This document shows, piece after piece, positions 2,662 to 45,096 of a stretch of DNA of 64,000 nucleotides. Under the pieces are notes generated by a model, which made no database searches, was not told the origin of the DNA, and saw only the letters and a program-made list of their open reading frames with translations. The translations under genes were made by a program, and so were the position numbers. This stretch comes from a virus. The stretch's first letter is position 1; every line of letters begins with the position of its first letter. The DNA is taken from the UHGV virus genome UHGV-1353844; one strand, written 5' to 3'.

Positions 2662-2862
2662 TCATGACTTCCCTCCAACACACCGCCACTCACATTCGCG
2701 TTGGTGCCAAATTGAACCCCAGGCGAGTCTAATCGCGTACGCTAAGACCACCCATAAAATCGCCGTTATACAAAATAGCACGTACAGAATGGCAACCAGC
2801 ACCATGACGCTAAACCCTAAAACGCTTAGTAACTGACGCCACCAATCAGTTTGCGTAGACAA
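2662..2862 (-). CDS. small membrane protein
   Basis: 66 aa with long hydrophobic stretches; overlaps end of upstream ATPase gene by 17 nt; stop overlaps ATG of a further 36-aa hydrophobic ORF (2555..2665) in ATGA arrangement. Confidence 0.35.
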   Translation of the reverse strand: MSTQTDWWRQLLSVLGFSVMVLVAILYVLFCITAILWVVLAYAIRLAWGSIWHQRECEWRCVGGKS

Positions 2863-5350
2863 TTTTTACTCCTTCGTTGTAAACCGCAGGCAGTGTTACG
2901 CCTTCAGGTTCAATAACACAGTATGCGGCTTCGTTAAGTTTTGAATGAATTTCTGCTTCGTGAGATACCACCAGTAACTGAGAGAACTCACCGGAATTCG
3001 CCAGGGTTTTAATAAACCCGACAAGATTATTTCGGTGTTCCTCATCCATCCCTTCTGACGGTTCATCCAACAGTAGCGGATACTGATGAAGTTTCAGGGC
3101 TTTGTAAGCGGTTAAACGAAACATCAAATTAAAGATGGCCCGCTGCGCTTTCGACCCTTTCCGCACGTCAGGTACCGGTTCAGGATGAGTTTTCAACTGC
3201 ACTGGGAACGTGTAGTCTAAGTCACCGTCGGTTAAGTCACACGGCATGACCCGCATAGGGTAGGTCCAGACTTGTTCGATATATCGCGTCATTAATTCTG
3301 TGATTCTCACGATAGCGTTGTAGAAGTATTTGCGTAATACCCCTTTCTCGGGCGAGAACGCTTGAATCATCAGCTTGTTATTAAATTGCTGCGCTTGTAA
3401 ATCCGATAACTCCTTTTCTAACGCAGTAAGTTGGTTGAGTTCGTTTTCCATCTGACGGTACCTTTCCCGTGCTGTGGTGAACGCATCCAACTTGTTTTCT
3501 CGGGCGTTTAATAACGTTTCGACCACCGTGTTGGTTAATGTTACCTTAACGTCGTTCTCTAAACGCTCAAAAACCGCATTAAAATTGTCTACAGTGACTT
3601 TAAGTTCGTTTAGATAACAAAAGGTATCATTAGCAACTGCGTGCTCTCTACGGCGCTCTGAGAGCGTTTCTGTTGCCTTACCCAAACGTTCCTGCTGGAA
3701 GGCAATTTTCTGCTGTAGTGCACCGTCAACGTTACCTACCGCTGCAACCGCATTTTCCCACTCTTTTTCCGCTTTAGCAAAACGCTGTTTCGTTTCGTGG
3801 TACTCAATTGCGGAATAAAGTTCACGATCGAACTCTGCGCACAGACTGCCAAACTGACTGCGGTTATCCGTAAAGACATTCCGCTCCTGGAGACGTTTAA
3901 AGAACAAACTCAATACCGGGTCTTTCGAGTATGTTAAAACGATTTCCCGTACTTGACGCATGTAATTAACGTCCGACTCTAATTCCGTACGGTCTCGCAA
4001 TACGGAATCAAGTTGAGTCTGTAACGTATTACGTTGCTCCATTTGTCCACGAATGGCTTCTTCCAATTCAGGCAAAGAACGACGGACACCCGGACGGAAT
4101 TTAAATTGACACTGCGGACAATCAACCTCGGCGGTTTCCAAATAGTGATTCCGTTCGTGGTTGAGATTCTGCAATACATTTTCAACACGCTGTAACCTGT
4201 CACGCAACCCAGATGAGTTTTGGTCTAAGGTCAACAGTTTCTCTTCCAGTACGTTCAACCGCTCCGTTGACTTAATAGCATCCAGTGTTGTTCCTAAACG
4301 TTGTCCCCAGACACGCGCATCGGTTGCTGCTTTAAGCTGGTCGATGTTAACGGTCTCTGCAAACAGTTCAGGGAAAAGGTGCTCAGTGTCCCACTGCTTT
4401 ATTAACTCGCGTAGTTTCGCAACCGTGTTTTTTAACCCCTCGTGATTCCGCATCAGGTAATCTTGGCGAGTGGACTCGTCCATCAACAAAGACAAATCTT
4501 TGTTTAGCATGGATAGTTCTGTTTCAGCAGAGACCACCGCTTCACGGGCAGTGGCTTCAATCCGTCGTGCTTCCTCTACTTGTTCTTCCGTAGGTAATCC
4601 GCCACGGTGTTCCAAGATAGCATTAATCGGTGCTTCGATTTTAAGCAATAGCGATTGAATCGTTGCCACCGTAACGTCACGATTCAGACCAGGCAGTTGT
4701 TCAATCTGTTTGTTGAGTTCACGTAAATCCGCTTCTAACGCTTTTAACCGCGTTGCTAATTGCTGACGTTCCTCTTCGTTATCAATTACGCGGGTACGCA
4801 ACTCTGCAATCTTGCGGCTGGTGATTTCAATACCACCGTTTAGCATCGTCAGGTTTTTTCGTAAACGTTGATAAAAACCTAACGCGTAAGTTAAGTCTGA
4901 CGTACTTAAACGGTAGAACCACTTACGGCGCAGTTCCGTTCCTGCATCCGTTAAAAGCACTTCCCCGTTCAGTAACTCTTTAATCTCTTTTGTAATGCCC
5001 GTGATTTCTTCTACGCGAGAGTTATACACTTTCGCATTACCTTGCTCGACGATTTTGGTACCCGTCGTCAGGTTCTCGATATCGCAAACCAATGAGTTGC
5101 CTTTACGTGCAACCTTAAATTTGTAACGATGGTCGTTAACCAAACAGATATTGGTGTAAGAACCCCCGTCACGGAATTCGGATTTCGAAGGTGCGATAGG
5201 TAGAAACACGGACAGTAAGCTGGTCTTACCGCAGCCGTTACCACCGAGGATAATGGTGGTTGGGGAATGGATAGTAAAATCGAAGGTTTCGATTTCGTGT
5301 AACCCCATTCCGGTAAATCCTTTAAGTACAATACGTTCAACTTTTAACAT
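2846..5350 (-). CDS. SMC/Rad50(SbcC)-like ABC ATPase with central coiled coil
   Basis: Walker A GGNGCGKTS near N-terminus; long heptad-rich middle with CPQC (zinc-hook-like); C-terminal signature-like GSKAQRAIF, Walker B LLLDEP and H-loop SHE. Start moved to ATG at 5350 (GGAGG SD 5 nt upstream) rather than GTG at 5368. Confidence 0.6.
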   Translation of the reverse strand: MLKVERIVLKGFTGMGLHEIETFDFTIHSPTTIILGGNGCGKTSLLSVFLPIAPSKSEFRDGGSYTNICLVNDHRYKFKVARKGNSLVCDIENLTTGTKIVEQGNAKVYNSRVEEITGITKEIKELLNGEVLLTDAGTELRRKWFYRLSTSDLTYALGFYQRLRKNLTMLNGGIEITSRKIAELRTRVIDNEEERQQLATRLKALEADLRELNKQIEQLPGLNRDVTVATIQSLLLKIEAPINAILEHRGGLPTEEQVEEARRIEATAREAVVSAETELSMLNKDLSLLMDESTRQDYLMRNHEGLKNTVAKLRELIKQWDTEHLFPELFAETVNIDQLKAATDARVWGQRLGTTLDAIKSTERLNVLEEKLLTLDQNSSGLRDRLQRVENVLQNLNHERNHYLETAEVDCPQCQFKFRPGVRRSLPELEEAIRGQMEQRNTLQTQLDSVLRDRTELESDVNYMRQVREIVLTYSKDPVLSLFFKRLQERNVFTDNRSQFGSLCAEFDRELYSAIEYHETKQRFAKAEKEWENAVAAVGNVDGALQQKIAFQQERLGKATETLSERRREHAVANDTFCYLNELKVTVDNFNAVFERLENDVKVTLTNTVVETLLNARENKLDAFTTARERYRQMENELNQLTALEKELSDLQAQQFNNKLMIQAFSPEKGVLRKYFYNAIVRITELMTRYIEQVWTYPMRVMPCDLTDGDLDYTFPVQLKTHPEPVPDVRKGSKAQRAIFNLMFRLTAYKALKLHQYPLLLDEPSEGMDEEHRNNLVGFIKTLANSGEFSQLLVVSHEAEIHSKLNEAAYCVIEPEGVTLPAVYNEGVKIVYAN

Positions 5351-5380
5351 GTCCACCTCCATATTCACGGAGCGTGGTGT

Positions 5381-6653: not shown

Positions 6654-7043
6654 TCAGTAATCTAATTCGATAGCGCCTAGCATCTCACCGCGTTCTTCGA
6701 TGACGATAAGATGACGGTCACGTGATTTGCTTTTCGCAAGCGTTAGTACAACTGTGGGGTCACACGTTTTGGTCGTTACAGGAAGCACCTCTTTTGCTAC
6801 AGCGTCAAGTACGAAATAATAACCCGCAGGGCAGGTTGTTCCGCCGTCTGCTTTTACGAGTATATAGCGTCCATCTGCGCCAACTTCTTGGCACTCGCCT
6901 GCATCGCCTTCGCAGACTTCAAAACCCGGTGGGTTGTAGTGATAGTCTGTGTTCGTTGCCGGGGTAAGTAATAAATCGTCGATGTGTGTAGAAGCCATAA
7001 CTCCGATTGAGAAAAACGCCAACAAAGCGCAGATAAGACGCAT
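6654..7043 (-). CDS. secreted small protein (signal peptide, Cys-containing)
   Basis: N-terminal signal peptide MRLICALLAFFSIGVMA; 6 Cys in mature part; member of 5-gene array of exported proteins. Confidence 0.5.
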   Translation of the reverse strand: MRLICALLAFFSIGVMASTHIDDLLLTPATNTDYHYNPPGFEVCEGDAGECQEVGADGRYILVKADGGTTCPAGYYFVLDAVAKEVLPVTTKTCDPTVVLTLAKSKSRDRHLIVIEERGEMLGAIELDY

Positions 7044-7053
7044 GGTTTACTCC

Positions 7054-7464
7054 TTAGATTTTAAGTTTGTCCTGAGCGACAACGATGGGTGCTCCAGAGG
7101 TGTCGATAACACCTACAGTCGGCACACCATTTTTGATTTTGAAGAACGGTTTGTTTTCGCCTGAACACAGTTGGTTGTCTTTGTATTCAATTTTCTGTGC
7201 TTTCCAAGTTTCCAGATTGAGCACCGACATAGGGCTGTCGTAGCACCAGGCACCGCCTTGCTCAACAACGAAAACATACCTGTTACCTTTGTATTCAAAC
7301 AAATTCTTTGTCTGGCAATACAGACCGTCAATTTCTGTGCAGTAGAATTCGTCGGTACTGTTGACGTATTTGATACCCGCCGGTAGTTTTACTGTTTTTG
7401 CTGCTACGTTAAGAGAGAACAGAACAGTTACAGCAACGAGTAAAGTTTTGATAAACGTTTTCAT
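7054..7464 (-). CDS. secreted small protein (signal peptide)
   Basis: Signal peptide MKTFIKTLLVAVTVLFSLNVAA; several Cys (FYCTEIDGLYC, WCYDSP). Confidence 0.5.
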   Translation of the reverse strand: MKTFIKTLLVAVTVLFSLNVAAKTVKLPAGIKYVNSTDEFYCTEIDGLYCQTKNLFEYKGNRYVFVVEQGGAWCYDSPMSVLNLETWKAQKIEYKDNQLCSGENKPFFKIKNGVPTVGVIDTSGAPIVVAQDKLKI

Positions 7465-7479
7465 GACAGACTCCTTAAA

Positions 7480-7962
7480 TTAGTTAACCGCAGCTACGTA
7501 TTTCTTAACCAGATAGGCGAATTCATTAACGCCGATATCGCCAAACCAAACCAGATAACCTGGGTCGACGTTGTAATAGTAACCTACTACGACATGGGTC
7601 TGAGGGTTATAAAGCGTCGTGATGTATTCCCAACCACAAGCATTGCTTTTGCAAGCGGTAGACTCAAGCCAGACTTTGCCGTTGATTTGCACGGGAATAA
7701 CATCGCCGCCAGGACCATTCATTACACCATCTTTACCGAATAATCCGTCTAGTCCGACCGGTTTCAACGCTTTATCGATTGCGGCTTTATAAGTCGCATC
7801 GTCAGTATAGAGTGTGTTGATATCAGGACACGCTCCAGGTTGTTCAGCCCAGGCTTCCGGGTTACAGCTAAGTGCTTGTTTTACGGTAGCCGCTTCTGCG
7901 TTAAAGGTAAAGCCTGTGAACAGAATAGCCACGAAGAACATCAGGGTATGTAAACGTTTCAT
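7480..7962 (-). CDS. secreted small protein (signal peptide)
   Basis: Signal peptide MKRLHTLMFFVAILFTGFTFNAEA. Confidence 0.5.
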   Translation of the reverse strand: MKRLHTLMFFVAILFTGFTFNAEAATVKQALSCNPEAWAEQPGACPDINTLYTDDATYKAAIDKALKPVGLDGLFGKDGVMNGPGGDVIPVQINGKVWLESTACKSNACGWEYITTLYNPQTHVVVGYYYNVDPGYLVWFGDIGVNEFAYLVKKYVAAVN

Positions 7963-7980
7963 TGTAAATTCTCCATTAAA

Positions 7981-8373
7981 TTATTCAGCGCTACGATTTA
8001 AAGTAATACGGCCAATCAGTTCTGCATTATGGAAGAAGTCCACAGCAGTATAGTTTCCGACCTCTAACGGATGAATACTGACCGACATGACTTTTGGTTG
8101 TTCGCAGGCGATATCCGTCAGACGTTGGTAGACTTGTGCACGGGTGTCGGCAATGAGTAATCCGGTACACGTTTCACCGCGTACTAAGCGATAAACTTGC
8201 AGTTTACCGAAACTGCGCATTAACGTAGGTGACTCGTCCGGGTTGATAATGGGTGAGTCAGGAGCCGGTTCGTAATGGCGGACGTCCGAATCGCCGAAAG
8301 CATAAGTGCCAGTAATACCGATTGCACAGAAAATAATGATGGTATAAAGTATAGTTCTGATATTCATTTTCAC
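7981..8373 (-). CDS. secreted small protein (signal peptide)
   Basis: Signal peptide MKMNIRTILYTIIIFCAIGITGTYA. Confidence 0.5.
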   Translation of the reverse strand: MKMNIRTILYTIIIFCAIGITGTYAFGDSDVRHYEPAPDSPIINPDESPTLMRSFGKLQVYRLVRGETCTGLLIADTRAQVYQRLTDIACEQPKVMSVSIHPLEVGNYTAVDFFHNAELIGRITLNRSAE

Positions 8374-8857: not shown

Positions 8858-8903
8858 TGAAATGCTCCTTCGGGTTATGGGGAAGTTCCCACAAAACATG
8901 AAA

Positions 8904-9275
8904 TTAAATAACTGTGTTGGGGAATGCTTTAATCTGCGTATAGCTATCTCCGATACCTCTTATCATCTCCAGACGTTCTTCTGTAGAAAGGCTTTGGTTA
9001 ATGTCTTTGTCAAGATTGAACAGTGTCAAGAGTTTTGCAATTGCAACCGTCAGGTTGTCGGACAGCTGGTTGTTTTTACGCCATTCTTCGTTACGGAAAA
9101 TAGAGATAAGGTCTTTCACCTGGCCTTCAGCGTGTGGTTTGGCTAACTGCGCGTCACGCTGTTCGATAAGGTATGCTTCGTTGGCAAGTAAACGTTTCAG
9201 GTCTTCTGGGTTAGTGGCAGCGCGAGTAACGATCAGTAATACAACAAACGGGTCTTTGAACAATTCGCTTTTCAT
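8904..9275 (-). CDS. hypothetical protein
   Basis: 123 aa; preceded (in coding orientation) by terminator, conserved AT-rich motif, hairpin and AGGAG SD. Confidence 0.45.
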   Translation of the reverse strand: MKSELFKDPFVVLLIVTRAATNPEDLKRLLANEAYLIEQRDAQLAKPHAEGQVKDLISIFRNEEWRKNNQLSDNLTVAIAKLLTLFNLDKDINQSLSTEERLEMIRGIGDSYTQIKAFPNTVI

Positions 9276-9305
9276 CGTTAATACTCCTAAAATGGTTTTA
9301 GTTAA

Positions 9306-9347
9306 GTGAGAGCTTTTGTACTCTCACCTAAGTAATATATATCTGAG
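9306..9347. promoter_or_regulatory. conserved AT-rich motif (CTAAGTAATATATATCTGAG) with adjacent 7-bp-stem hairpin; promoter-like
   Basis: One of five copies; sits between a terminator and the SD of the gene starting at 9275. Confidence 0.45.
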
Positions 9348-9365
9348 ATTATTTTTAATGTTAGA

Positions 9366-9397
9366 GAACAAAAAAAAGGTGGGGTTTACACCCCACC
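9366..9397 (-). terminator. rho-independent terminator (minus strand)
   Basis: GGTGGGGT-TTAC-ACCCCACC hairpin followed on minus strand by T8. Confidence 0.65.
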
Positions 9398-9401: not shown

Positions 9402-9980
9402 TTAAACGTCGAATCGATACTGACGAGAATTGATTAAGAATTCTGTATTCAGTTCGATCCATTCGAGCAGGTCACCCAATTGTAAACGGCTTGGGTTTTC
9501 TATCTCGATAGTGGCAACCGGATAAGAGTTTACTAATTCCGTAATTGCCTCGATACCTTCTTGCGTTCCATCGTCTTCTAAGGTAATTATAAACGGCATA
9601 TCGGTACGCTCTGCGTTCGGGTTATACAGACTGACTTTCGTTGCCTGTACAAACGCCGAGTAATCGTCACGTATGATCCTAACGTCAGGCGATAACGTTA
9701 CCCAGAGGTGTTGTCCCGGTTGGAGTTTACGTTTTGCGTAGTTTAAGAACGGATTAGCCGGTAAGTTTTCCAAACCACTGCAAATGTTCCGTAAATGAAT
9801 TCCTCGCGGATCTTTATAGTCCACAGTGAAAATTCCTACCGGCTCACGGTCTGCCTGTTTTACCAGAAAGGCCAATACCGTGTCCGCTCTCTCTGGTAAG
9901 GAAAGCTCTATTCCCTCAAGCTCCCCATCGACGAGGTTTTCCAACCAAACGTCTTTTCTCATTTCTATTAATCGGTACAC
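9402..9980 (-). CDS. hypothetical protein
   Basis: 192-aa ORF followed by strong hairpin+T8 terminator. Confidence 0.45.
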   Translation of the reverse strand: MYRLIEMRKDVWLENLVDGELEGIELSLPERADTVLAFLVKQADREPVGIFTVDYKDPRGIHLRNICSGLENLPANPFLNYAKRKLQPGQHLWVTLSPDVRIIRDDYSAFVQATKVSLYNPNAERTDMPFIITLEDDGTQEGIEAITELVNSYPVATIEIENPSRLQLGDLLEWIELNTEFLINSRQYRFDV

Positions 9981-9992: not shown

Positions 9993-10766
9993 TTAGTTAT
10001 TGAGATTTACATCTGCGATAAACAGCAATTGTTTGCCGTGCTGCTGTACTTCTTTCCAACCTAACTTCATAGCAGTATCAACAACATCAACCATGCTGTA
10101 ACGGGACATCAAAGATTCTGATTTTGTTCCTGACATTAAGTAAAGTGGCTCATTAGGGCTACGGTCACGTGCGTCAGGAAGTTCACGTACGACTGCCGAG
10201 CCTTCGGGTGCGGTAACAACATGAATCACGGTAAATGGCCTCTTGTGCGTTAAATAGATACGAAATCCAACGTGTTCAGATTCATGAAAGATTTTCTTCA
10301 CAATCACATCTTTCAGTGTTGTTTGAACATCAGCCCCAGGCGATATCATAGACTTGCTGGAAACGAAGCAACGACTATTTTCAATCGTGGAGAAATAATT
10401 ACGTATCGGCAAACTGGCGTTATGATCGCGCAGTTTTTTGCTCAGTAGATCGAAGTTCAGTTCTTTAACTTTTTCTAACCACTCTTTGGCCTGTTGAATG
10501 TAATAACTACCAACAGCGCGATAAGTTAATACTTTACCTGTGCTCACTTTCCAAAGCTTGATGGTTAGTGAGTTTGGCTTATAGCGACGATACTCACCCC
10601 GCGTATGGTTGATGCGCTCGTAGCGCTCTACATCGTTAATCGGTGCAGATTCGACCGATTGTAATTGCAACGTTCGATCTAGTCTATCGGCAAATAGTAG
10701 CGACGTTAGCGGGCCTTCGATCATATACGGTTCGGTTTTAAAGATATCGTCTAAATGGACTTTCAT
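9993..10766 (-). CDS. hypothetical protein, paralog family with conserved C-terminal module
   Basis: C-terminus ...GWKEVQQHGKQLLFIADVNLNN shared with two adjacent genes. Confidence 0.5.
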   Translation of the reverse strand: MKVHLDDIFKTEPYMIEGPLTSLLFADRLDRTLQLQSVESAPINDVERYERINHTRGEYRRYKPNSLTIKLWKVSTGKVLTYRAVGSYYIQQAKEWLEKVKELNFDLLSKKLRDHNASLPIRNYFSTIENSRCFVSSKSMISPGADVQTTLKDVIVKKIFHESEHVGFRIYLTHKRPFTVIHVVTAPEGSAVVRELPDARDRSPNEPLYLMSGTKSESLMSRYSMVDVVDTAMKLGWKEVQQHGKQLLFIADVNLNN

Positions 10767-10833: not shown

Positions 10834-11985
10834 TTAAAGGTCAGCAACAAACAGCAGCTGACTGCCGTACGGTTCGACAGATTTCCAACCGTAATCTTTA
10901 CCGATCGTCGTTAAATGGCCGGTATTTAACTTTTTGTCAACCATCCGCAGACGCATCATTAGCGTATTGGATTCTGCCGCATCGAGTAACAACGCAGGTT
11001 CTTTTTCAGTGCGGTCATCCGCTTTCGGGAAGAAACTGTAATATTGACTTTTGGGCAGATCGATTGACAACGTATAATTTTTCTTTGTAACGAATAACGC
11101 CATCCCTTCGAAATTGCAATCGAAACGATATTCCCAACCCGCTTCTGCTAAAACGTCTTTTAGCATTTCCATGACTTTAAGCTGGTTAACGCTGGGCAGT
11201 CGGTAGATTGCAAGACCACTTGGGAAAATGCGTATACCGTCGACGACACTATCGGTGGTCTCGTCAATAAGTTCAGGATAGCGTTGTGAGAAAATGTGTT
11301 CGCTCTTGCTTTTCTCTTCGACGTCACGAATGAATTGGGCTAATTCGTCTCTTAAGGCAGACATTTGATTTTCTCCTTTGTCTTCAATAATCAGGTGGGG
11401 TTCGCCGCTAATTAAAATGTGGTAAACGAGATCGTCGGTAGAACGGTAAGTGAGCTTGATAGCTTTATCACTTAACATTTCGTAGCGGAAGAAACTTTCG
11501 TACCAGGTCGAGCCGAAATCGTTTCGTGTGAGTTCCTGCTCAACTTTGATGGTTTTTGCTTCAAAACCAATTAACCCACTTAATAACGCGAGTTCTGGTT
11601 TAGTTAAAATAGCTGCACCGTGAAAGGACACTTGCTCAAGCTGAAAACATAAACTACTGACTTTACCGCTTGGGAAGACCTTAAACATAATCTTCCGGCC
11701 GCTACTCTTTTCTCTAACAACGAGTTTACGGTAATTTAGTCCAGAATTTGTGTAAACCTCGAACTGGTAACCTTCAATTTCTTCATCGTAAGTACAGACA
11801 TCGACAGGCGCGATAATCTCATCGTATTCACTCAGTACACAGCAGCCCAAGTTATAACCAAACAACTCGCGTTGTAATGAAGACTCGATGGTTAAGCTTG
11901 GCAGAGGCCAAGTCTGATTATAGCATCTGTCCATCAGTTCTTTTAGGATCTTGACATGTCCTGGTTTAGAAATAATATTTCGCAT
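10834..11985 (-). CDS. hypothetical protein, paralog family with conserved C-terminal module
   Basis: C-terminus ...GWKSVEPYGSQLLFVADL. Confidence 0.5.
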   Translation of the reverse strand: MRNIISKPGHVKILKELMDRCYNQTWPLPSLTIESSLQRELFGYNLGCCVLSEYDEIIAPVDVCTYDEEIEGYQFEVYTNSGLNYRKLVVREKSSGRKIMFKVFPSGKVSSLCFQLEQVSFHGAAILTKPELALLSGLIGFEAKTIKVEQELTRNDFGSTWYESFFRYEMLSDKAIKLTYRSTDDLVYHILISGEPHLIIEDKGENQMSALRDELAQFIRDVEEKSKSEHIFSQRYPELIDETTDSVVDGIRIFPSGLAIYRLPSVNQLKVMEMLKDVLAEAGWEYRFDCNFEGMALFVTKKNYTLSIDLPKSQYYSFFPKADDRTEKEPALLLDAAESNTLMMRLRMVDKKLNTGHLTTIGKDYGWKSVEPYGSQLLFVADL

Positions 11986-12014: not shown

Positions 12015-12572
12015 TTAAACGTTATAAGCTAAGAACAACAGTTGCTGACCGAGTTTGCGCACTGTATGCCAACCGTGTGCTTTTGCTGTCCCTACCAATG
12101 TTTCCCAGTCATCAATATCACAACCGTCCTTTTTCAGTTCTGTAAGTAGTGCCTCTGCTTCTTTATCTGTTAGTAGTATTCCTGGGTTACTTAACGTACA
12201 CGTAAGTGGGTTAGGGAAATATGCGTAGCGTCTTGCGAAAGTAAAGTTCACGAGATAACGTGCATCTCCTCTGTCTAGAAGGGTAATAACATTGCCACCG
12301 TAGAACGCACTCGTTACTTTCCATCCGGTACCGGAAAACAGATGACGGAATATTTCGGTAAAACTATCTCCGACACTATGATAATTAAGTCGTGAGAAAC
12401 GGCGTTCCCAAACCACAGCATCTCCATCAAATTCTTCAACTTGAAGACCGGTAATCATTGTACCTGGCCGGATAACGTTAGACTGTATAACGCAAGGATA
12501 ATCAAGTTGGTGTTTACCTGCACCCAGCTTAACAAACTCAATAGCTTGTTGTTTCATTTCGATAGTAATCAT
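12015..12572 (-). CDS. hypothetical protein, paralog family with conserved C-terminal module
   Basis: C-terminus ...GWHTVRKLGQQLLFLAYNV; leader CCATTTTAGGAG shared with genes at 9275 and 45066. Confidence 0.5.
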   Translation of the reverse strand: MITIEMKQQAIEFVKLGAGKHQLDYPCVIQSNVIRPGTMITGLQVEEFDGDAVVWERRFSRLNYHSVGDSFTEIFRHLFSGTGWKVTSAFYGGNVITLLDRGDARYLVNFTFARRYAYFPNPLTCTLSNPGILLTDKEAEALLTELKKDGCDIDDWETLVGTAKAHGWHTVRKLGQQLLFLAYNV

Positions 12573-12690: not shown

Positions 12691-12876
12691 CCGGTATCCC
12701 GAGTAGCAGAATAAAGGGACAATCTGTAAATTTTAAGTAATACTATGATTACCGAGGAATAGCCGGGTTGTAGCGTTTGAACAGTACGATGACTTCGTCC
12801 AATCCGCTTTTCTTCTCAGTAGACATTGGTCTGTCTCCTAATCACATGGTAACTCCGTTTCGAAAGAAACGTGCCC

Positions 12877-12931
12877 ATAGGGGCTGAAGTGCGAGTTCAG
12901 CCCCTATTCACTTAAGTAAAATATATCTGAA
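12877..12931. promoter_or_regulatory. conserved AT-rich motif (CTTAAGTAAAATATATCTGAA) with adjacent 12-bp-stem hairpin; promoter-like
   Basis: Hairpin ATAGGGGCTGAA-GTGCGAG-TTCAGCCCCTAT at 12877..12907; motif at 12911..12931, ~27 nt upstream of ATG at 12959. Confidence 0.4.
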
Positions 12932-12958
12932 TTCATTTCCGATCTAAGGAACGACCTA

Positions 12959-13924
12959 ATGGAGAAATCCAGCGTTGACTTTTTCTCGATTGGTATCGTC
13001 GCGGAAGACAAACCCCGTGGTACAGATCGGGTAAAAGTGATACCAATTGAAACCAACTTTGCGAACCCTACCGTTGTACAATCAGTTTCCTCAACCGCTG
13101 AAAAGGTACACGATACTGGGGGTGCTATCGACAACCTAACGATTAAAACCGGTAACACGATTACTGCAAAGTGGTGGAAATTTAATTCCAACCGAATTAA
13201 TTCCCCAGACGTTAAGCGAGAAGATTACGTTATCTTGCTACGTCTAGGGCAAACTGATATTTATTTTTGGATTGATTTGAATTTCGCTAACGTTAAGCGA
13301 TTAGAGGATGCGGTTTACGCGTGGTCGGCTGACCCGGAAAACCAGATGGCGGATGACTTGTCGAACGCGTATGTGTTAAACGTCTCAACGATTGACAAAC
13401 ACGTTACCCTAAGAACAAGTATGGTGAATGGGGAGAAAGCGGCGTGGTTATTCCAATTCGATAACGCTAACGGGTCGTGGCAGTGCGTTGACCATAAAGG
13501 GAATAAGTATTACATTAACTCGGTGGAAGACGATTTAGGTTTTGAGAACGCGATGCTCTCGAAAGTGAACATCAACAAAGAAGATGCGTTCATTTACGCA
13601 AAACGTTCGATTAACCTGGAAACGAAAACGATTAATGAGAAATGCGAAGTTCGGAATACCGAAGCGTCGAAATCGGTTACCTTTAAAACAGAAACCTGGC
13701 TAACTGAAGCTTCTGGTTCAACAACGTATAAAACGCCGAACTTTAAGCAAGAAGGTAACGAAGCGATGTTCACCGGTAATTTGGAAGTTGCTAAGAACTT
13801 CAAATACGGTGGTACGGGCGAAGGCGTGGGTATCTTTACGGTTAAGGATGCGGTGATTTCCGGTATTACCTTCAGCGTACACATCCACGACGGCGTCCAT
13901 GGCCCAACTTCAGGCCCACGCTGA
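12959..13924 (+). CDS. hypothetical protein, possibly virion-associated (C-terminal H-x-H motif)
   Basis: 321 aa; AAGGA SD; first gene of plus-strand structural-like block; C-terminus ...SVHIHDGVHGPTSGPR. Confidence 0.45.
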   Translation: MEKSSVDFFSIGIVAEDKPRGTDRVKVIPIETNFANPTVVQSVSSTAEKVHDTGGAIDNLTIKTGNTITAKWWKFNSNRINSPDVKREDYVILLRLGQTDIYFWIDLNFANVKRLEDAVYAWSADPENQMADDLSNAYVLNVSTIDKHVTLRTSMVNGEKAAWLFQFDNANGSWQCVDHKGNKYYINSVEDDLGFENAMLSKVNINKEDAFIYAKRSINLETKTINEKCEVRNTEASKSVTFKTETWLTEASGSTTYKTPNFKQEGNEAMFTGNLEVAKNFKYGGTGEGVGIFTVKDAVISGITFSVHIHDGVHGPTSGPR

Positions 13925-13944: not shown

Positions 13945-13961
13945 GGTATTATATATTGTGA
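13945..13961. promoter_or_regulatory. weaker variant of the conserved AT-rich motif (GGTATTATATATTGTGA)
   Basis: Upstream of the DUF1471 gene; partial match to motif. Confidence 0.25.
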
Positions 13962-14042
13962 CCTGACGTTGGTAAGCTTCTTATCAACACTTTTCTTAAA
14001 CCTCATCGTTTAGTTAAGCAGGCCACTTTTTTCGCGCACTCA

Positions 14043-15710: not shown

Positions 15711-18700
15711 ATGGCTGTCGTCCTAGACCCACACTTCAAAGAACCGGGGAATAAAATAACCGGTGAAGCGGTCGCCGTCATTGGTACGAAGTACCGAATG
15801 TTGGTACCTGCCCACGCCCCTTTTTTCACCACATCCCTGGTGGTCAAGAGCGGCGGCAAAATACTGACCTTAGGCGACGATTACGTTATTACACACCCGT
15901 ACGAGACCGGTATGTTGCGCACAGCCTATCTCGTGCACGGGATGATTTGGATTGTTAATGACAAATACAAATCGAATTTCACGGTAGATTACCACGCCGT
16001 AGGTTGTGGTGAAGCGACCCAAGAACAGATTACCGCAGAACGCGAACTCAATAAAGATAAATACCCGTCTGCGTGTCAATGGGATACCGTTATCGGCGAA
16101 GTTTACTTTCCACCGGTCGATATTCAGTTCGACTGGGAAAACTGGAAAGGTGAACTGGAATTAATGCAGGCCATTGCAGGCTTAGGTGATTCGTTAGGTA
16201 ACGTGGTGAATCGGGTAGACCCGATTGCACGTAACACGTTAGATATCGAGCATCGTGCTAATGGTACGGTTATCACGTCTGAACAGTACGCAACGTACGA
16301 CAACAAAGGTGGGTATACTTACAATACCGCTAAACGCCGTTTCTCCGTTACGTACAAAACCACCACGTTAAATGAATATTCCCTGTCGATGAAATACCGT
16401 ATTCCGGCTATTTTTCCGAATATGGGGAGTATTAATCCGAACGAACAAATCGATTGGATGTTGTGCTACGCGAACGGTGGCGCAAGTATCCTTCGTCTCC
16501 AATTAAAACAACGTAAAATCAGCCTACGACTGACAGTTGCGTTAGGCAGTGGTTCGACCGATTATGATTATACGTTAATCAACGGTTTGACCGACGATGA
16601 ATTAAAAGGCGAATTAACGTTTAGCGTTGTTCGTCAACCGGGTAACGGTGTATACGTTATCGAGGTGACGACTAACAAACAGTCCATGGACTACACCTTT
16701 AACGTTGACACACCGCCAGACGAATTCTCAGCAGGTTACACCAAAACGGATGTTGCGAAGTGGCTGAAGTACAAAACCAACGTTAACTTAAACTGGTGGG
16801 CGGCTGAGAACGATTATGCTCAATTCCTTGCGTTACCTGGTGCGCCAGAAGCAGACGTAAGTAACGACGTTTATCAGTTAATCGTTAAGTACCATCAGTT
16901 AGTAGAACAGCTCTATCGCAACGCGCCTGCGCACGAACACGTCACCCGTAAGGATAACCCACACGCTGACACCTGGGGTCCGATTCGTGCGTTAGAATTA
17001 AACGGCATTGCATCCGACGCAGCATTAGCCTACGGGAAAACTAAGGAGCAATTAACCGATTACGTAAACGCTAAGTACCCAACGCAGGCAACGTTAACCG
17101 CCCAGAAAAAACTGCTTCGTGAATCAGCGAGCAAGAACGTTAACGGCACGATTACAACGCTCCCCGGCTTTACGTCATTTACTACTGAAGTCGACCCAGT
17201 GTCGATGTCGAAGTACGTGAGTCCTTATTTTAGTGAAAGCTATGTTAGTAGTGGCCACAGATATCACGGTGCGCTTCGTTATACAGGAACGAAAAGCGGT
17301 TTCAGTGCTAACTTTAATGCGGTACCTGCCAACCTGCAAGATATTGACTTTATTGTTACCGGACGTAAAACAGCGTCTGGTAATGAAGCGGTCGGTAGGG
17401 TTGGTTTTCGTTTCTACGAAAATCCCGGTAGTAACTCCGGTAAGTACGTAGAGATTACCGGTGAAGTCTGGTCCGGTACTCTTACTATCGAACTGGCGTT
17501 GCACGGTTACGGTAGTCCTGTACCGGCAGTTCGGTATATTTCGCAAGCTCCTAATCCGGCAATACCGGATGGGGATTTTACGCTACGTTTTCAACTGAAG
17601 CGTACAGGGAATGTGTTTGACGTCGTTATTACCGTAAACAGTAAAACGTATAGCGGTCGGATTAACTTCAATAACATGGACGCTGCGTTAGAAGCATTAG
17701 AGAATCAGCACCACTTTAAATCGCTGATCAATAATGTTGCTGACGGCGTCAATATTAGTTCGCAAAACAAAGGTAACACGGTTACCATTAAGAAAGCACC
17801 TGGCGTTGTTGACGAGAGACGTTTAGGTGCTCAGTTTGTCGTTGATCCGAAATCCATTAAGTTCATCGGTCAAGGTTCTACTGACGTTAACGTGGGTAAC
17901 AACCCGGTAACGTTGCAAGCGGGAGATAACCAGCTTGTGCTATATCCTGATGACCGTGGATTACTGTGGCGCGGTAAGAAACTCTTAGACCCCACTACGG
18001 TAGCGCCGTATTTGCCGGGCAATACCGCAGGCGGTACGGGATTATTCTACGGTGCAACTACAGCTACAGTGGAACTTACGGGTAGCGGGATTAAAGCGTC
18101 GCCGTTTGTCGCAACGTTTATTCTTCCGGTTGCCGAAGACGTTACTACGTTAGCGTGTTGGCAGTTAACGGACGAATTCGGTACGGCTGAAAACCTCGCA
18201 GCAACCCCTGCGTTAATTGAAAAACTGGACGCAGAGTTTACCGGTAAGTTAGTTGCCGCCAAGTCGTACATCAACGACATGCAGCTTACCAGTTCGGTTA
18301 CTATCGACAAAATTACCTTTGGTTTAGGTAACGTTGCGAATACCCCGGACGTTGACTTACCGATTTCTGTTGCACAGCAGACCGAGCTGGACAAATACTC
18401 ACCGAAGGTTCACCAACACCCGTCTTCCGTATTCGGTGTTGCGAACGCAGACACCACGAAACGGGGCCTGATTAAATTCGGTCTGGAAGTGGATGATGCC
18501 ACTTTAGCGCTCGACGGTAGTGTGGTGATGGCGCAGACTTCCCAGATTGAAGATTTGGAGAATACCGTCGGCGGGGTTGACTCGGGTGCGCGCGTTGACA
18601 TTATTCGCTTTGGTAAGTCCGGTAACGACCTAATTGACGTTACGGTTAAAGACAAAATCCTAGTGACACTTCCTGCTTCCACGTATTTCGTTGGCGGCGA

Positions 18701-20033
18701 AACGTACGACGTGCCGTTGATGTCGGTTAACGTCACTGAACGTTTCCCGAATCTGAATAAGGAAATTTACGCAGGGATTTTTGTTGACATTGTCGATAAC
18801 AAAGCGAAGTACATTATTCACGACAGCTACAGTCAGGCTGAAACGGATACCATGACGCGCGTGGGTCTAATCGGTATTAACGACCTTTCTGAAGTGTTCG
18901 TTACTGAACTACGTAACGTGACACGGTTAGGCGATTTCCGTGAGCTGAAAGACCACGTCGCCAATGATAACGCACACATTCAGCGTTCTGCTTCACGTGC
19001 AGTGCTGGGGTTAAGCAATTTAACAGTAGGTGCGCCCTGCTGGGCTTCTGGACTTCAAGCGGTTGTGCGTGGCGAAGCAGACTGGCGTTATGTGGTTGGC
19101 GGTGGATATAAAGCACTCGATGGTGTGAAATACGACCAGCTTGCGTCGAAGTGGGTGTTTGATGCAAAAGGGGTAAGTGATAACGTTCACGGGTTTATCC
19201 ACAACCTGTTCCCGGTATTTAACAATGCGGGGATGCGAGTCAGTTGGGAAACCGAAAGCAACGCAAAAACCGGAACGGTGCTAGAAACCATCCTGGCTTG
19301 CTGGAAAAATACCGAAGACGAGTTTATGCGGTTGTCGTTACTTATCACCCGTGGTTATCGTTTAACCGACAGTAACGGTGAGTATTGTTACGCCGGGTTT
19401 GGTTTAAACTTCGGTAACGGGAAATCCGTGGTGTTAGGTTTCACGCCGACCAAACGCGTTACCCCAGCACCGTGGAGTACGTTACATCCTGACGTATCAT
19501 TTACCCACACGCGTGGTGCGAATAACGAATTAACGTTTAACGCAACGCTGACCTTAGCAGGTACTGTTTACACTATTGTGGTGTATTTGTCTGCGGCAGA
19601 TAAATACGTAAGCTGTACGGCGGCAGGTGGTACTACGCAGAAAATCTCGCTGACCGACCGTTTAACTGGGTTCAACCTCGCGCCTATCGTTAACGATCCG
19701 TACACCCCTATTTACTACGGTTTAGGGGGACTTTATGAGGACGAAGTGCGTGCTAATATCCGTTCTACGACAGACAGCATAACCGGGAACAAACTCTACG
19801 GTACGCTGTTGGATTATATCAGCAACTACTCCTCGTTAAATCGTGTACGCGTCATGGAATTGGCCGGGACAAGCTCAGACCCTGAAACGCTTAATGCGCT
19901 AGTGGCAACCGAGTTTAATAACAGCCTGGCGGATTACGCTGCGTTACCGATACCTCCTTATCTTAACAAGGAGCGCGTAATGTCGTTTATCGACACCAAC
20001 AATAAAGTGCAGGCGGTAATCATTCGCGATTAA
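15711..20033 (+). CDS. large fibre-like structural protein (1440 aa) with shared N-terminal anchor module
   Basis: GGAG SD 8 nt upstream; N-terminus carries the P-F-F ... G-D-Y module shared by the next three genes; size and position suggest tail fibre/tailspike. Confidence 0.55.
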   Translation: MAVVLDPHFKEPGNKITGEAVAVIGTKYRMLVPAHAPFFTTSLVVKSGGKILTLGDDYVITHPYETGMLRTAYLVHGMIWIVNDKYKSNFTVDYHAVGCGEATQEQITAERELNKDKYPSACQWDTVIGEVYFPPVDIQFDWENWKGELELMQAIAGLGDSLGNVVNRVDPIARNTLDIEHRANGTVITSEQYATYDNKGGYTYNTAKRRFSVTYKTTTLNEYSLSMKYRIPAIFPNMGSINPNEQIDWMLCYANGGASILRLQLKQRKISLRLTVALGSGSTDYDYTLINGLTDDELKGELTFSVVRQPGNGVYVIEVTTNKQSMDYTFNVDTPPDEFSAGYTKTDVAKWLKYKTNVNLNWWAAENDYAQFLALPGAPEADVSNDVYQLIVKYHQLVEQLYRNAPAHEHVTRKDNPHADTWGPIRALELNGIASDAALAYGKTKEQLTDYVNAKYPTQATLTAQKKLLRESASKNVNGTITTLPGFTSFTTEVDPVSMSKYVSPYFSESYVSSGHRYHGALRYTGTKSGFSANFNAVPANLQDIDFIVTGRKTASGNEAVGRVGFRFYENPGSNSGKYVEITGEVWSGTLTIELALHGYGSPVPAVRYISQAPNPAIPDGDFTLRFQLKRTGNVFDVVITVNSKTYSGRINFNNMDAALEALENQHHFKSLINNVADGVNISSQNKGNTVTIKKAPGVVDERRLGAQFVVDPKSIKFIGQGSTDVNVGNNPVTLQAGDNQLVLYPDDRGLLWRGKKLLDPTTVAPYLPGNTAGGTGLFYGATTATVELTGSGIKASPFVATFILPVAEDVTTLACWQLTDEFGTAENLAATPALIEKLDAEFTGKLVAAKSYINDMQLTSSVTIDKITFGLGNVANTPDVDLPISVAQQTELDKYSPKVHQHPSSVFGVANADTTKRGLIKFGLEVDDATLALDGSVVMAQTSQIEDLENTVGGVDSGARVDIIRFGKSGNDLIDVTVKDKILVTLPASTYFVGGETYDVPLMSVNVTERFPNLNKEIYAGIFVDIVDNKAKYIIHDSYSQAETDTMTRVGLIGINDLSEVFVTELRNVTRLGDFRELKDHVANDNAHIQRSASRAVLGLSNLTVGAPCWASGLQAVVRGEADWRYVVGGGYKALDGVKYDQLASKWVFDAKGVSDNVHGFIHNLFPVFNNAGMRVSWETESNAKTGTVLETILACWKNTEDEFMRLSLLITRGYRLTDSNGEYCYAGFGLNFGNGKSVVLGFTPTKRVTPAPWSTLHPDVSFTHTRGANNELTFNATLTLAGTVYTIVVYLSAADKYVSCTAAGGTTQKISLTDRLTGFNLAPIVNDPYTPIYYGLGGLYEDEVRANIRSTTDSITGNKLYGTLLDYISNYSSLNRVRVMELAGTSSDPETLNALVATEFNNSLADYAALPIPPYLNKERVMSFIDTNNKVQAVIIRD

Positions 20034-20046
20034 GGAGAATTTTTTG

Positions 20047-24228: not shown

Positions 24229-24265
24229 GACAGGCTGCCTGCGGGCAGTTGTGTGTCCGTAGGTA

Positions 24266-24300
24266 ACCCCTCCCTGTAATGGGGAGGGGTATCCATTTTA
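24266..24300 (+). terminator. terminator-like hairpin between fibre genes
   Basis: ACCCCTCCC-TGTAAT-GGGGAGGGGT followed by ATCCATTTTATTT. Confidence 0.45.
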
Positions 24301-24322
24301 TTTAAAAGTAGGAGTCTTTACG

Positions 24323-29509: not shown

Positions 29510-29549
29510 TGACTCGAGACAAGGACGTCTCGAATAAAGGAGAGTGGCC

Positions 29550-42094: not shown

Positions 42095-42163
42095 TTTAAT
42101 GCTCCTTTAGGTAAATACAATAATAGAGGGGTGGTTTACCACCCCTTGGACGATTTTAGTTAA

Positions 42164-43330: not shown

Positions 43331-43351
43331 GGTACTTTTCCTTTTGGTAAA

Positions 43352-45066: not shown

Positions 45067-45096
45067 GGTATATGCTCCTAAAATGGTTTTAGTTAA

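Follow-up and report, generated by a model that had tools for sequence, protein, structure and literature searches.

The 64,000-nucleotide stretch of DNA analyzed here, referred to as the window, carries at positions 9306 to 9347 a 21-bp AT-rich element, CYTARGTAAWATATATCTGAR, next to a hairpin. A preliminary description noted that this combination recurs at several loci and raised the question of whether it represents a phage-specific class of promoter whose transcripts begin with the hairpin. Our analysis indicates with high confidence that the element is an early promoter of an SPN3US/Asesino-like, phiKZ-related jumbo phage, and that it is most likely read by the RNA polymerase carried in the phage particle. 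Since this promoter class has already been described, the main finding is confirmatory.

Copies of the element in the window

Exact copies of the element, written above as it reads on the plus strand, are located at 9327-9347, 12911-12931, 45118-45138, and 48737-48757. By chance, 0.01 copies would be expected, and a total of four matches was reached in no shuffle. The element constitutes the strongest repeat family of the window (family D2). A tolerance of three mismatches yielded no further sites, and no weaker sites beyond the four were recovered in the window by a PWM scan, by allowing up to 7 mismatches, or by core-only regular expressions. The true sites score 46 to 68 bits in the PWM scan, with a matrix that was built from pattern-selected instances and is therefore biased toward the strict form of the motif. 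The core alone also matched at 41199 and 9583, both within open reading frames (ORFs) and without the flanking motif; these two matches were rejected. A scan of the window for Rfam families and tRNAs gave no matches.

Five loci had originally been proposed. Four of them hold the exact copies listed above, but the fifth, 13945-13961, which had been regarded as a weaker variant, is not a copy. It scores less than 8 bits in the PWM scan, differs from the 27-nt consensus at more than 7 positions, and has no downstream hairpin (z-score of +0.25). This locus occupies the convergent gap after the plus-strand baseplate gene 12959-13924 (phrog_3216, E 4.6e-112) and coincides with a generic sigma70-like match, TTACCA-16-TATAAT.

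All four sites are on the minus strand, within two minus-strand gene blocks, and each reads in that direction as an A-rich tract, TTTCAGATATATATTACYTARGTGAGA, a hairpin, a leader of about 30 nt, a Shine-Dalgarno sequence, and ATG (Table 1). They are multicopy, intergenic, and co-oriented with mostly small genes of unknown function. The stable hairpin said to adjoin the element is present at every one of them (z-scores of -1.9 to -4.5), and the nearly identical block of about 80 bp shared by sites 1 and 2 was recovered as repeat D1, which spans 9271-9357 and 45062-45148 with 87% identity over 87 nt. Three copies had been placed just downstream of a terminator. A canonical terminator precedes only sites 1 and 3, the one at 48774-48802 stopping a few bases short of the T/A-rich upstream tract of site 3. 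Site 2 instead adjoins the end of the upstream ORF (45149-45430), its A-rich tract extending to the stop codon, and site 4 lies in a divergent intergenic region between the baseplate gene and minus-strand genes. Site 4 is also the most divergent copy, with a PWM score of 45.7 and 6 mismatches to the 27-nt consensus; orthologous copies exist in relatives L018, L021, L022, L035, and L037.

The gene that follows site 1 heads a series of small minus-strand genes of unknown function reaching down to an SbcC-like gene (2846-5368). The operon behind site 4 continues through 12015-12572, 10834-11985, 9993-10766, and 9402-9980 to the terminator at 9378-9397. In relative L046, the counterpart of gene 48143-48586 starts about 70 nt after the motif.

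Table 1. Coordinates of the promoter sites and associated features in the window
Feature	Position	Strand	Details
Site 1 promoter	9322-9360	-	Exact motif; 2 mismatches to 27-nt consensus; PWM 67.6
Site 1 A-rich tract	9360-9350	-	ATTAAAAATAA
Site 1 27-nt consensus match	9348-9322	-	TCTCAGATATATATTACTTAGGTGAGA
Site 1 core	9339-9332	-	TATATTAC
Site 1 predicted transcription start	near G9325 (range 9327-9325)	-	phiKZ/201phi2-1 spacing
Site 1 hairpin, predicted RNA 5' end	9305-9328	-	GGUGAGAGU / ACAAAA / GCUCUCACU; 53-nt segment 9276-9328, -14.4 kcal/mol, z -3.6
Site 1 leader	9276-9304	-	Shine-Dalgarno AGGAG at 9288-9284
Site 1 first gene	8904-9275	-	123 aa; ATG at 9275-9273
Intrinsic terminator of operon upstream of site 1	9378-9397	-	GGTGGGGTGTAAACCCCACC then T8; ~18 nt upstream of site 1 A-rich tract
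Site 2 promoter	45113-45151	-	Perfect 27-nt consensus match at 45139-45113 (0 mismatches); PWM 67.4
Site 2 predicted start	near 45116	-	
Site 2 hairpin	45096-45119	-	Site 1 stem, other loop (UCAGCU); repeat D1; 53-nt segment 45067-45119, -14.5 kcal/mol, z -3.1
Site 2 leader and first gene	44572-45095	-	Leader near-identical to site 1 leader
Site 2 first gene	44572-45066	-	164 aa; no PHROG match; heads minus-strand gene run
Site 3 promoter	48732-48770	-	TCTCAGATATATATTACCTAGGGGAGA; PWM 47.1; 2 mismatches; predicted start near 48735
Site 3 hairpin	48712-48734	-	AGAGCGAA / 7-nt loop / UUCGCUCU; 49-nt segment 48690-48738, -11.9 kcal/mol, z -1.9
Terminator of virion-protein gene upstream of site 3 (48961-49473)	48774-48802	-	Thirteen pairs
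First clear gene after site 3	48143-48586	-	147 aa; ~150 nt downstream of motif
Site 4 promoter	12906-12944	-	ATTCAGATATATTTTACTTAAGTGAAT; core TATTTTAC; predicted start near 12909
Site 4 hairpin	12877-12907	-	12-bp G+C-rich stem AUAGGGGCUGAA / 7-nt loop / UUCAGCCCCUAU; no T-run after; 48-nt segment 12865-12912, -22.2 kcal/mol, z -4.5
Small ORF, first start codon after site 4	12749-12826	-	25 aa; Shine-Dalgarno; candidate gene

Source of the window and RNA polymerases of its relatives

On the basis of protein identity and synteny, the source of the window was identified as an uncultured jumbo phage of about 225 kb related to SPN3US and Erwinia phage Asesino. The large virion protein encoded at 20044-24228 shares 47 to 52% identity with proteins of Asesino, SPN3US, and other jumbo phages, and the layout of the window is syntenic with the 150- to 172-kb region of SPN3US. 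IMG/VR contigs of 151 to 225 kb are 91 to 97% identical to the window, and a complete relative, available as a circular record of 221,873 bp, is 95.5% identical. The element in strain 98232 and vB_EcoM_EC001 are among the close relatives. The phage probably infects E. coli.

An RNA polymerase gene is absent from the 64-kb window. The complete relative encodes an RNA polymerase beta-like gene with 69% identity to Asesino gp40, which is a homologue of phiKZ gp55, as well as a homologue (85.5%) of the SPN3US gene annotated as "RNA polymerase beta subunit." Beta-like subunits are also encoded on closely related IMG/VR contigs. The virion polymerase of SPN3US was demonstrated by mass spectrometry, and polymerase packaging in the virion has been shown for SPN3US, phiKZ, and similar phages only (PMC5105663).

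Similarity to phiKZ-type early promoters

As proposed in the preliminary description, the element belongs to a phage-specific promoter class: in both sequence and spacing, it matches the early promoter motif of phiKZ-like phages. In phiKZ and 201phi2-1, an AT-rich motif has been assigned to the virion polymerase; it precedes the mapped early transcription starts by about 10 bp (PMC7598289, PMC8244752, PMC11512511). The published phiKZ core is TATATTAC, the 201phi2-1 consensus is ...TTTRARR_BTATATTACDWHDGTG, and the OBP consensus also lines up (PMC7058600). The window sites combine a core of this type with an upstream TTT-N-AGAT and an A/T-rich tract at fixed spacing. Their consensus, AAAAATAATTTCAGATATATATTACYTARGTGAGA, can be compared with phiKZ sites such as aaaaaaatttgAGATtTATATTAC; phiKZ sites, for example, the one upstream of PHIKZ054, read TTTaAGATaTATATTAC with the same spacing as in the window. 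Start site, early timing, and polymerase are deduced from this homology with phiKZ and 201phi2-1.

The resemblance to these two members of the Chimalliviridae covers the core, the preceding TTT-N-AGAT-N at equal spacing, and the A/T-rich tract, and it extends to genomic organization, with multiple AT-rich copies that precede, on the same strand, operons of small, functionally uncharacterized early genes. The window sites differ from those of phiKZ and 201phi2-1 in that conservation runs on through YTARGTGAGAG, and from those of phiKZ in regularly having a hairpin at the predicted 5' end, a feature that the phiKZ sites show irregularly. The published N1M2 consensus, TBYAWWWWWTTTCARRYAKATATTATYWAAGTGWA (PMC7058600), aligns with AAAAATAATTTCAGATATATATTACYTARGTGAGA without gaps. 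Its core ends in TTAT rather than the TTAC found here, although weak sites of the complete relative have the GATAGATATTATC core form, as in N1M2-type promoters. The latter are bioinformatic predictions and were described without a hairpin.

Distribution and genomic position of the motif

A 37-mer containing the motif was found at 474 places in 139 phage records, 120 of which are SPN3US-like, Erwinia, or Pseudomonas phages as judged by organism name. A strict pattern identified 55 IMG/VR loci, mostly on contigs of 100 to 246 kb. The promoter position upstream of genes that had been suggested for the window is general: in 58 of 60 unique instances, the motif points at a downstream gene, with a Shine-Dalgarno sequence, a start codon, and a same-strand ORF. 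The start codon follows the motif at a median distance of 52.5 nt (interquartile range, 51 to 60.5 nt; 60 unique instances), and a T-run is present just upstream in 43 of the 60. For two sites in relatives that have no nearby ORF, no tRNAs were found downstream.

A genome-wide motif search, which the preliminary description had called for, was carried out on the complete relative. It returned 14 matches within 7 mismatches, compared with 0 in 20 shuffles. Thirteen of the 14 are on the minus strand, and all 13 are intergenic and directly upstream of a same-strand gene, so the motif does not occur mostly in coding regions. The operon with the RNA polymerase beta-like gene has one of these 13 at its head. 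The 27-nt search pattern can be used to find early promoters across SPN3US-like phages, essentially without false positives, and the element marks early operons for the annotation of an uncultured jumbo phage.

A hairpin at the predicted 5' end of the transcripts

The hairpin starts at the predicted transcription start. With the published distance of about 10 bp from motif to start (PMC7598289, PMC11512511), initiation is predicted at the first hairpin bases, in agreement with the earlier suggestion that the hairpin forms the 5' end of the mRNA. The "about 10 bp upstream" spacing on which this prediction is based carries an uncertainty of approximately 3 nt.

When sites 1 and 2 were aligned over 87 nt, 7 of the 11 differences mapped to the 8-nt loop of the hairpin and none to the core stem arms, GTGAGAG/CTCTCAC. 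Over 60 instances, the mean folding z-score was -2.8, with 75% of the values below -1.5. Loops range from 3 to 14 nt and are free in sequence, and the stem sequences are variable. Native combinations of 5' and 3' arms reached -9.5 kcal/mol, versus -6.4 kcal/mol for cross-site chimeras (p ~1e-6); shuffled tails on the 3' side still paired fairly well with the purine-rich 5' arm. This co-variation of the arms, seen across 55 instances, suggests selection for a stem-loop at the RNA 5' end. RNAalifold predicted no structure from an ungapped alignment of 44 instances because loop lengths differ; it was replaced by per-sequence folding, the native-versus-chimeric arm test, and pairing-probability profiles.

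It should be noted that the hairpin is not required for promoter function, as it is inconsistent at phiKZ early promoters (z-scores of +0.6 to -3.5 at 7 sites), and the four weakest sites of the complete relative show, by eye, little or no sign of it. An intrinsic terminator was rejected as a reading of the hairpin, since none of the four has a T-run after it on either strand. The site 3 hairpin does appear in the output of the terminator scan, though without a T-run. The genuine terminators are separate upstream hairpins, at 9378-9397 and 48774-48802. An RNase III site was rejected because the stems comprise only 7 to 12 bp.

In E. coli, the ompA leader provides an example of a 5'-end stem-loop that stabilizes mRNA. 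Drawing on such general knowledge of E. coli mRNA decay, we infer that the hairpin serves in message stabilization. Like its counterparts in ompA-type leaders, the stem-loop sits no more than a few nucleotides from the predicted 5' end, ahead of a single-stranded leader with a ribosome-binding site. In contrast to these leaders, its 5' arm is partly fixed by the initially transcribed sequence of the promoter, and stabilization is putative. Early transcripts are reportedly synthesized within a vesicle and have to persist in the cytoplasm of the host. The stem-loop may be a clade-specific device for stabilizing or handling early mRNAs, and the co-varying 5' hairpin is a candidate determinant of early mRNA stability or handling in this clade. 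RNase E scans mRNA from the 5' end (PMC9943677).

In the mechanism that we propose, the injected multisubunit virion polymerase would recognize the A/T-rich tract (approximately -30 to -22), TTTCAGA (approximately -21 to -15), and the core TATATTAC (approximately -14 to -7), and would initiate at the conserved G's of YTARGTGAGAG, about 5 to 7 nt past the core. Each site would drive a minus-strand operon of small early genes, usually coming after the terminator of the preceding operon. According to sequence statistics, the predicted first bases of the transcript, (G)GUGAGAG, have a complement farther downstream that varies by site while pairing is kept, and the early mRNAs are therefore predicted to begin with a stem-loop and few or no unpaired 5' nucleotides. 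The stem-loop would most likely shield the first messages from 5'-end-dependent host decay (RppH, RNase E).

The location of the hairpin also bears on a reading modeled on phage N4, in which an extruded DNA hairpin would itself be part of what the virion polymerase recognizes. In N4, as presumably here, early genes are transcribed by an injected virion polymerase, and in both systems an inverted repeat is linked to the promoter; the stem here overlaps the conserved GGTGAGAG, and at sites 1 and 2 it reaches 2 to 4 nt upstream of the G7 start estimate. However, N4 hairpins have their center at -11, on the upstream side of the start, show a 3-nt loop and conserved bases in stem and loop, and are used by a single-subunit, T7-like enzyme (PMC4496689). 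The hairpin described here varies in stem and loop and is situated past the -10-like core, at or after the predicted start; by eye, the weak sites of the complete relative and several phiKZ sites show it poorly or not at all. We consider an N4-type hairpin promoter very unlikely.

Possible recognition by other RNA polymerases

Could the element instead be a host sigma70 promoter, with TATATT as an AT-rich -10 sequence and the A-tract as an UP-like element, that is used before the phage enzyme is present? TATATT fits the -10 consensus at 5 of 6 positions, and site 2 can be read as TTAATA-16-TATATT (9 of 12). In addition, a copy that is almost the same stands upstream of genes in chromosomal islands of E. 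coli, in the absence of any phage polymerase. Yet site 2 is the only one of the four window sites that is even weakly sigma70-like, in line with the lack of a sigma70 match noted at the outset; sites 1, 3, and 4 have no match, and sigma70-like matches in the region are not above shuffle expectation. The element does not conform to TTGACA/TATAAT-like hexamers 16 to 18 nt apart, and the best-conserved positions of its information profile (CAGA, TTAC, and YTARGTGAGA) fall outside the sigma70 hexamers. Moreover, the motif is common to phiKZ-like phages of Pseudomonas, Erwinia, Salmonella, E. coli, and Vibrio, its strict form is absent from 185,579 species-representative bacterial genomes, and phiKZ infection is reportedly unaffected by rifampicin (PMC13282480). 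Use as a host promoter is accordingly highly improbable.

A different temporal class, transcribed by a nonvirion phage polymerase at middle or late times, would be compatible with the relatively low copy number: approximately 13 copies in the 222 kb of the complete relative, compared with 28 to 32 early promoters in the 280 kb of phiKZ. Against this, the middle (TACT near -22) and late (TATG at the start) motifs of phiKZ are different (PMC7598289, PMC8244752), and in both phiKZ and 201phi2-1 it is the early class that carries the homologous TATATTAC motif. The genes downstream of the element are small, of unknown function, and not structural, and neither exact matching nor the PWM scan found a copy in the plus-strand structural block (15.7 to 36.3 kb). 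A middle or late class is hence scarcely probable, and the late-promoter framing of the preliminary description was abandoned in favor of an early one.

Cassette duplication and copies in E. coli islands

A cassette of about 87 nt comprising promoter, hairpin, and leader occurs in duplicate, and small-gene indels in relatives begin there. Three candidate junctions of the PeSL (promoter-early stem-loop) type were observed. The closest IMG/VR relative, L005, lacks gene 8904-9275 and its leader at this position, with the junction at 9320; relative to L005, gene and leader form an insertion beginning exactly at promoter GGTGAGAG. L022 and L048 each carry this gene with a different leader, and a pair of E. 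coli island alleles shares its sequence as far as the predicted start, past which the two are unrelated. T4-type PeSLs are likewise short repeated units made up of a terminator, an early promoter, and a stem-loop; they lie between small variable genes, and indels or replacements among close relatives begin at them (PMC2839356, PMC4122927). They differ from the cassette in that their promoters are of the sigma70 type rather than of a phage-polymerase class and that their stem-loop is the upstream terminator, whereas the conserved hairpin here is downstream, inside the transcript; the evidence for shuffling here consists of a few junctions. The probability that the element mainly serves recombination or mobility, and owes its conservation to spread and not to promoter function, is negligible, as the duplication and junctions are compatible with promoter function, PeSLs are real promoters too (PMC2839356, PMC4122927), and strict orientation, constant start-codon distance, and homology to mapped promoters are explained only by promoter function.

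With the element taken as an early promoter, the cassette seems to have brought a phage early module, along with the phage-polymerase promoter, into CP4-like integrative islands of E. coli. The promoter and early-gene homologues in these widespread islands point to gene flow between jumbo phages and host islands. It is a rather unlikely extension of this reading that the cassette also acts as a recombination joint for early-gene swaps among jumbo phages and that the injected phage polymerase still transcribes from the copy in the island. If true, island genes would switch on upon jumbo-phage infection, as a sensor wired to the phage polymerase.

Many E. coli chromosomes contain a copy of the promoter together with homologues of phage early genes in CP4-like islands; an example of island genes downstream of the motif is found at 1998950-2000383 of NZ_CP028166.1. 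Pfam returned nothing for the early proteins shared with the islands. The 37-mer probe has a match in more than 40% of complete E. coli genomes; in 683, the match covers at least 80% of the probe. Among species-representative bacterial genomes, a second pattern matched Shigella flexneri only.

Four copies of an AT-rich element precede small minus-strand genes

The degenerate 21-mer of the preliminary description matched the window exactly at four sites (see table), whereas 0.01 matches were expected by chance, and allowing up to 3 mismatches added no further copies in the window. An independent repeat search returned the same four copies as the strongest repeat family of the window. The layout on the minus strand was common to all of them: an A/T-rich tract, TTTCAGATATATATTACYTARGTGAGA, an inverted repeat, a leader of about 30 nt, a Shine-Dalgarno sequence, and a start codon. 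All four sites fall within the two minus-strand gene blocks, which consist of small genes without known function, and none was found in the plus-strand structural block of the window. G+C content dropped to 39 to 42% where promoters and small early genes are concentrated (window 42000-50000), against 47 to 50% in the structural block.

The near-identity of about 80 bp previously noticed around two copies was borne out as a block of 87 nt with 87% identity (9271-9357 versus 45062-45148). A hairpin had been described beside each of five copies. This holds for the four sites, where folding energies ranged from -11.9 to -22.2 kcal/mol (z-scores of -1.9 to -4.5), but not for the weaker fifth one at 13945-13961, which has no adjacent hairpin (folding z-score of +0.25) and was rejected as a copy since it failed both the PWM scan and a 7-mismatch search. 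It sits in a gap between convergent genes, past the end of the baseplate gene 12959-13924 (phrog_3216, E 4.6e-112), which is certainly real, and coincides with an ordinary sigma70-like match, TTACCA-16-TATAAT (10/12; 13948-13975, minus strand). This is the best such match of the region and is directed antisense into the baseplate gene. Terminators had been placed upstream of three copies; canonical ones were found only at sites 1 and 3.

Behind site 3, a related sequence carries GGAGGATTAG-ATG, the start of a small open reading frame. The window has TTC in place of this ATG, leaving a leader of about 150 nt ahead of gene 48143-48586.

Coordinates of the element copies and related features (L-numbered entries are other database sequences compared with the window)
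Feature	Coordinates	Remarks
Element, site 1	window 9327-9347	minus strand
Element, site 2	window 45118-45138	minus strand
Element, site 3	window 48737-48757	minus strand
Element, site 4	window 12911-12931	minus strand
Start codon difference behind site 3	window 48676-48700; L030 3605-3625	
Element directly after the stop codon of the upstream gene	L001 2945-3045; L052 8431-8530; L069 15683-15790	EC001, SPN3US
Element followed by two hairpins	L012 211-340; L054 8580-8710	phiEaH2, Asesino-like contig
Near-perfect promoter copy with early-gene homologues	L071 1201-1234; L072 10865-12384; L073 7001-8230; window 7029-8373	NZ_CP028166.1, NZ_CP031833.1 chromosomes
Island homologue of window early gene	window 7981-8373	76% amino acid identity
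Island homologue of window early gene	window 7480-7962	95.6% amino acid identity, in another strain
Island homologue of window early gene	window 7054-7464	76% amino acid identity

The window belongs to a phiKZ-related jumbo phage

Megablast against phage records yielded almost nothing beyond the motif itself, in an SPN3US-like coliphage. At the protein level, three giant virion proteins, a baseplate protein, an SbcC-like protein, and tail genes corresponded to a jumbo phage of the SPN3US/Asesino type, and the gene order matched SPN3US 150-172 kb. IMG/VR contigs of 151 to 225 kb were 91 to 97% identical to parts of the window, and NZ_CP173450.1, a circular record of 221,873 bp from a complete E. 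coli assembly, was 95.5% identical to window 4746-25000. On these grounds, the window is assigned to an uncultured phiKZ-related jumbo phage, with E. coli as the probable host. In its database entry, NZ_CP173450.1 is labeled "plasmid p98232-contig_4" and comes from a urinary E. coli isolate; it is in fact a complete jumbo phage genome, with genes for a tail fiber, a family B DNA polymerase, an RNA polymerase subunit, and radical SAM proteins plus a tRNA-Ile. The record points to E. coli as the host and to either a carrier state or copurified phage.

No RNA polymerase gene was found in the 64-kb window. In the complete relative (NZ_CP173450.1), one gene encodes an RNA polymerase beta-like subunit with 69% identity to Asesino gp40, itself homologous to phiKZ gp55, and another is homologous to the gene of SPN3US that is annotated "RNA polymerase beta subunit." Virion polymerase subunits of SPN3US have been detected in the head by mass spectrometry (PMC5105663).

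Within the structural genes, four consecutive paralogous virion protein genes (15711-30749; 1440, 1394, 1728, and 401 aa) have a phrog_2163-type N-terminal region in common, and two adjacent radical SAM genes (32862-35103; 305 and 444 aa; phrog_1802), both also present in the complete relative, are embedded in the block. The tail fiber gene 50919-55385 (1488 aa) matches 61 PHROG families, among them distal long-tail-fiber families at its C-terminal end (residues ~1350-1487), and appears to encode a mosaic receptor-binding protein. Its counterpart in the complete relative is followed by a "receptor-recognizing protein" gene.

The element as a probable early promoter

According to a review (PMC7598289), a conserved AT-rich motif of about 10 nt, centered near -10, can be found ahead of the presumed early operons of every jumbo phage that encodes RNA polymerases; in all cases with mapped transcripts it turned out to be the early promoter, and its recognition is attributed to the virion polymerase. 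The initial 50 kb of phiKZ contain seven copies of TATATTAC, each on the coding strand, ahead of a gene, and preceded by TTT-N-AGAT-N. PHIKZ054, a gene with a published primary early start site (PMC8244752), has one of these copies upstream. Core and spacing are identical between the phiKZ early sites and the window element, and the published consensus sequences of N1M2, OBP, and 201phi2-1 (PMC7058600) give a gap-free alignment with that of the window, one that takes in the GTG past the core. A 37-mer taken around site 1 was found at 474 places in 139 phage records, 120 of which are, by organism name, SPN3US-like, Erwinia, or Pseudomonas phages; a strict pattern returned 55 IMG/VR loci, mostly on contigs of 100 to 246 kb.

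Downstream of 58 of the 60 unique instances we identified a ribosome-binding site, a start codon, and a same-strand open reading frame, the start codon being at a median distance of 52.5 nt (interquartile range, 51 to 60.5). A T-run typical of a terminator tail was located directly upstream in 43 of the 60. The genome-wide motif search proposed in the preliminary description was run on the complete relative, allowing up to 7 mismatches to the 27-nt consensus, with 20 shuffles as control. It gave 14 matches versus none in the shuffles. Thirteen were on the minus strand, all intergenic and directly upstream of a same-strand gene; the sole opposite-strand match was inside a gene. Weaker matches carry GATAGATATTATC, the core form of N1M2 and OBP, and one of them (139205-139231) heads the operon containing the RNA polymerase beta-like gene. 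The non-virion polymerase subunits of phiKZ are early products, with which this arrangement agrees.

The original promoter interpretation is thus supported by the phiKZ-like motif, the promoter position, and the genome-wide test. The element very probably belongs to an already known promoter class, the early promoters of jumbo phages related to phiKZ, which are attributed to the virion RNA polymerase. Recognition as a sigma70 promoter is a weak alternative: site 2 offers a 9/12 match, but it is the only one of the four sites to do so, such matches are not enriched, and the most informative motif positions fall outside the sigma70 hexamers. Against a promoter of another temporal class, the phiKZ middle and late motifs look different (PMC7598289). 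An N4-type DNA hairpin promoter fails on hairpin position, loop size, and enzyme type (PMC4496689).

A hairpin at the predicted 5' end of the transcript

A spacing of about 10 bp between core and start would put initiation at the conserved G's, 5 to 7 nt after TATATTAC, and the transcript would begin with (G)GUGAGAG. Across 60 instances, the 38 nt from the predicted start had a mean folding z-score of -2.8, and the stem almost always began within the first few nucleotides; pairing probability was high at positions 4 to 14 after the core. Part of the 5' arm is set by the promoter sequence. The inner stem and the 3' arm vary from site to site but remain complementary (GAGAGUUAA/UUAACUCU, GAGAUUAC/GUAAUCUC, GAGCAUUGA/UCAAUGCU, and AUAGGGGCUGAA/UUCAGCCCCUAU). 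Native arm combinations folded at -9.5 kcal/mol, compared with -6.4 kcal/mol for cross-site chimeras (3 better; P about 1e-6). Between the two near-identical window cassettes, 7 of 8 loop positions differ and none in the core stem arms (manual count from the alignment). Together, these results are good evidence for selection on pairing, and the hairpin is likely to be a selected stem-loop at the RNA 5' end. An RNA rather than a DNA structure is favored because the loops are variable (3 to 14 nt) and the hairpin lies downstream of the core.

In E. coli, 5'-end-dependent decay is classically slowed by a stem-loop placed right at the 5' terminus. RNase E scans from the 5' end (PMC9943677). We tentatively consider mRNA stabilization, an even possibility at best, the most likely role. 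Hairpins are inconsistent at the early promoters of phiKZ and, as judged by eye, weak at the weakest sites of the complete relative, which makes the hairpin an accessory to the promoter and not a component of it. None of the promoter-proximal hairpins has a T-run behind it, and they were rejected as terminators on that ground. Searches of the window for Rfam families and tRNAs gave no match.

Two copies elsewhere have unusual surroundings. In EC001 and SPN3US, a canonical terminator (GGCTACC...GGTAGCC plus T-run) is located about 20 nt past the 5' hairpin and ahead of the following gene; possible readings are a short RNA of about 55 to 60 nt, an attenuator, or simply a promoter upstream of the preceding operon's terminator. 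In phiEaH2 and an Asesino-like contig, a long hairpin is followed by a second one (CTGTCCCAAATACGTTGGACAG); a start codon is absent for about 105 nt, and no tRNA was detected. This may be a structured leader or small RNA.

Possible cassette exchange and a copy in E. coli islands

Relative to the closest IMG/VR contig (L005, 8951-8972), gene 8904-9275 (123 aa) of the window is an insertion, together with its hairpin and leader (8878-9319), and the inserted stretch starts precisely at GGTGAGAG of the promoter. The leader of this gene is nearly the same as that of site 2. In other relatives of the phage, the gene follows the same promoter with another hairpin and leader (its leader also differs in the related contig L048), and leaders such as AATCGACTATTAATCTAAAGGAG recur behind several promoters. 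The cassettes resemble the PeSL cassettes of T4-type phages (PMC2839356, PMC4122927), with a few junctions seen here.

Among 5,426 complete E. coli genomes, the 37-mer had some match in 2,303 and covered at least 80% of its length in 683; among species-representative genomes, the motif occurred in Shigella flexneri only. The order in NZ_CP028166.1 is terminator, TTCAGATATATATTACCTGGGTGAGA, leader, Shine-Dalgarno sequence, and ATG, and the copy lies within a CP4-like integrative island, where it has patatin-like/RdcB/dynamin/Ag43/GTPase genes on one side and DUF932/antirestriction/JAB/CbtA-YeeU genes on the other. Two of the three window early genes with island homologues are syntenic early genes in SPN3US too (gp086 and gp084), and the module has a G+C content of 42.7% versus 51.3% in the surrounding island. 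Combined with the promoter copy and the homologues, this suggests phage-to-island transfer of the module. A comparison of two island alleles showed identity as far as the predicted start site and no relationship beyond it, which places a junction at the promoter again.
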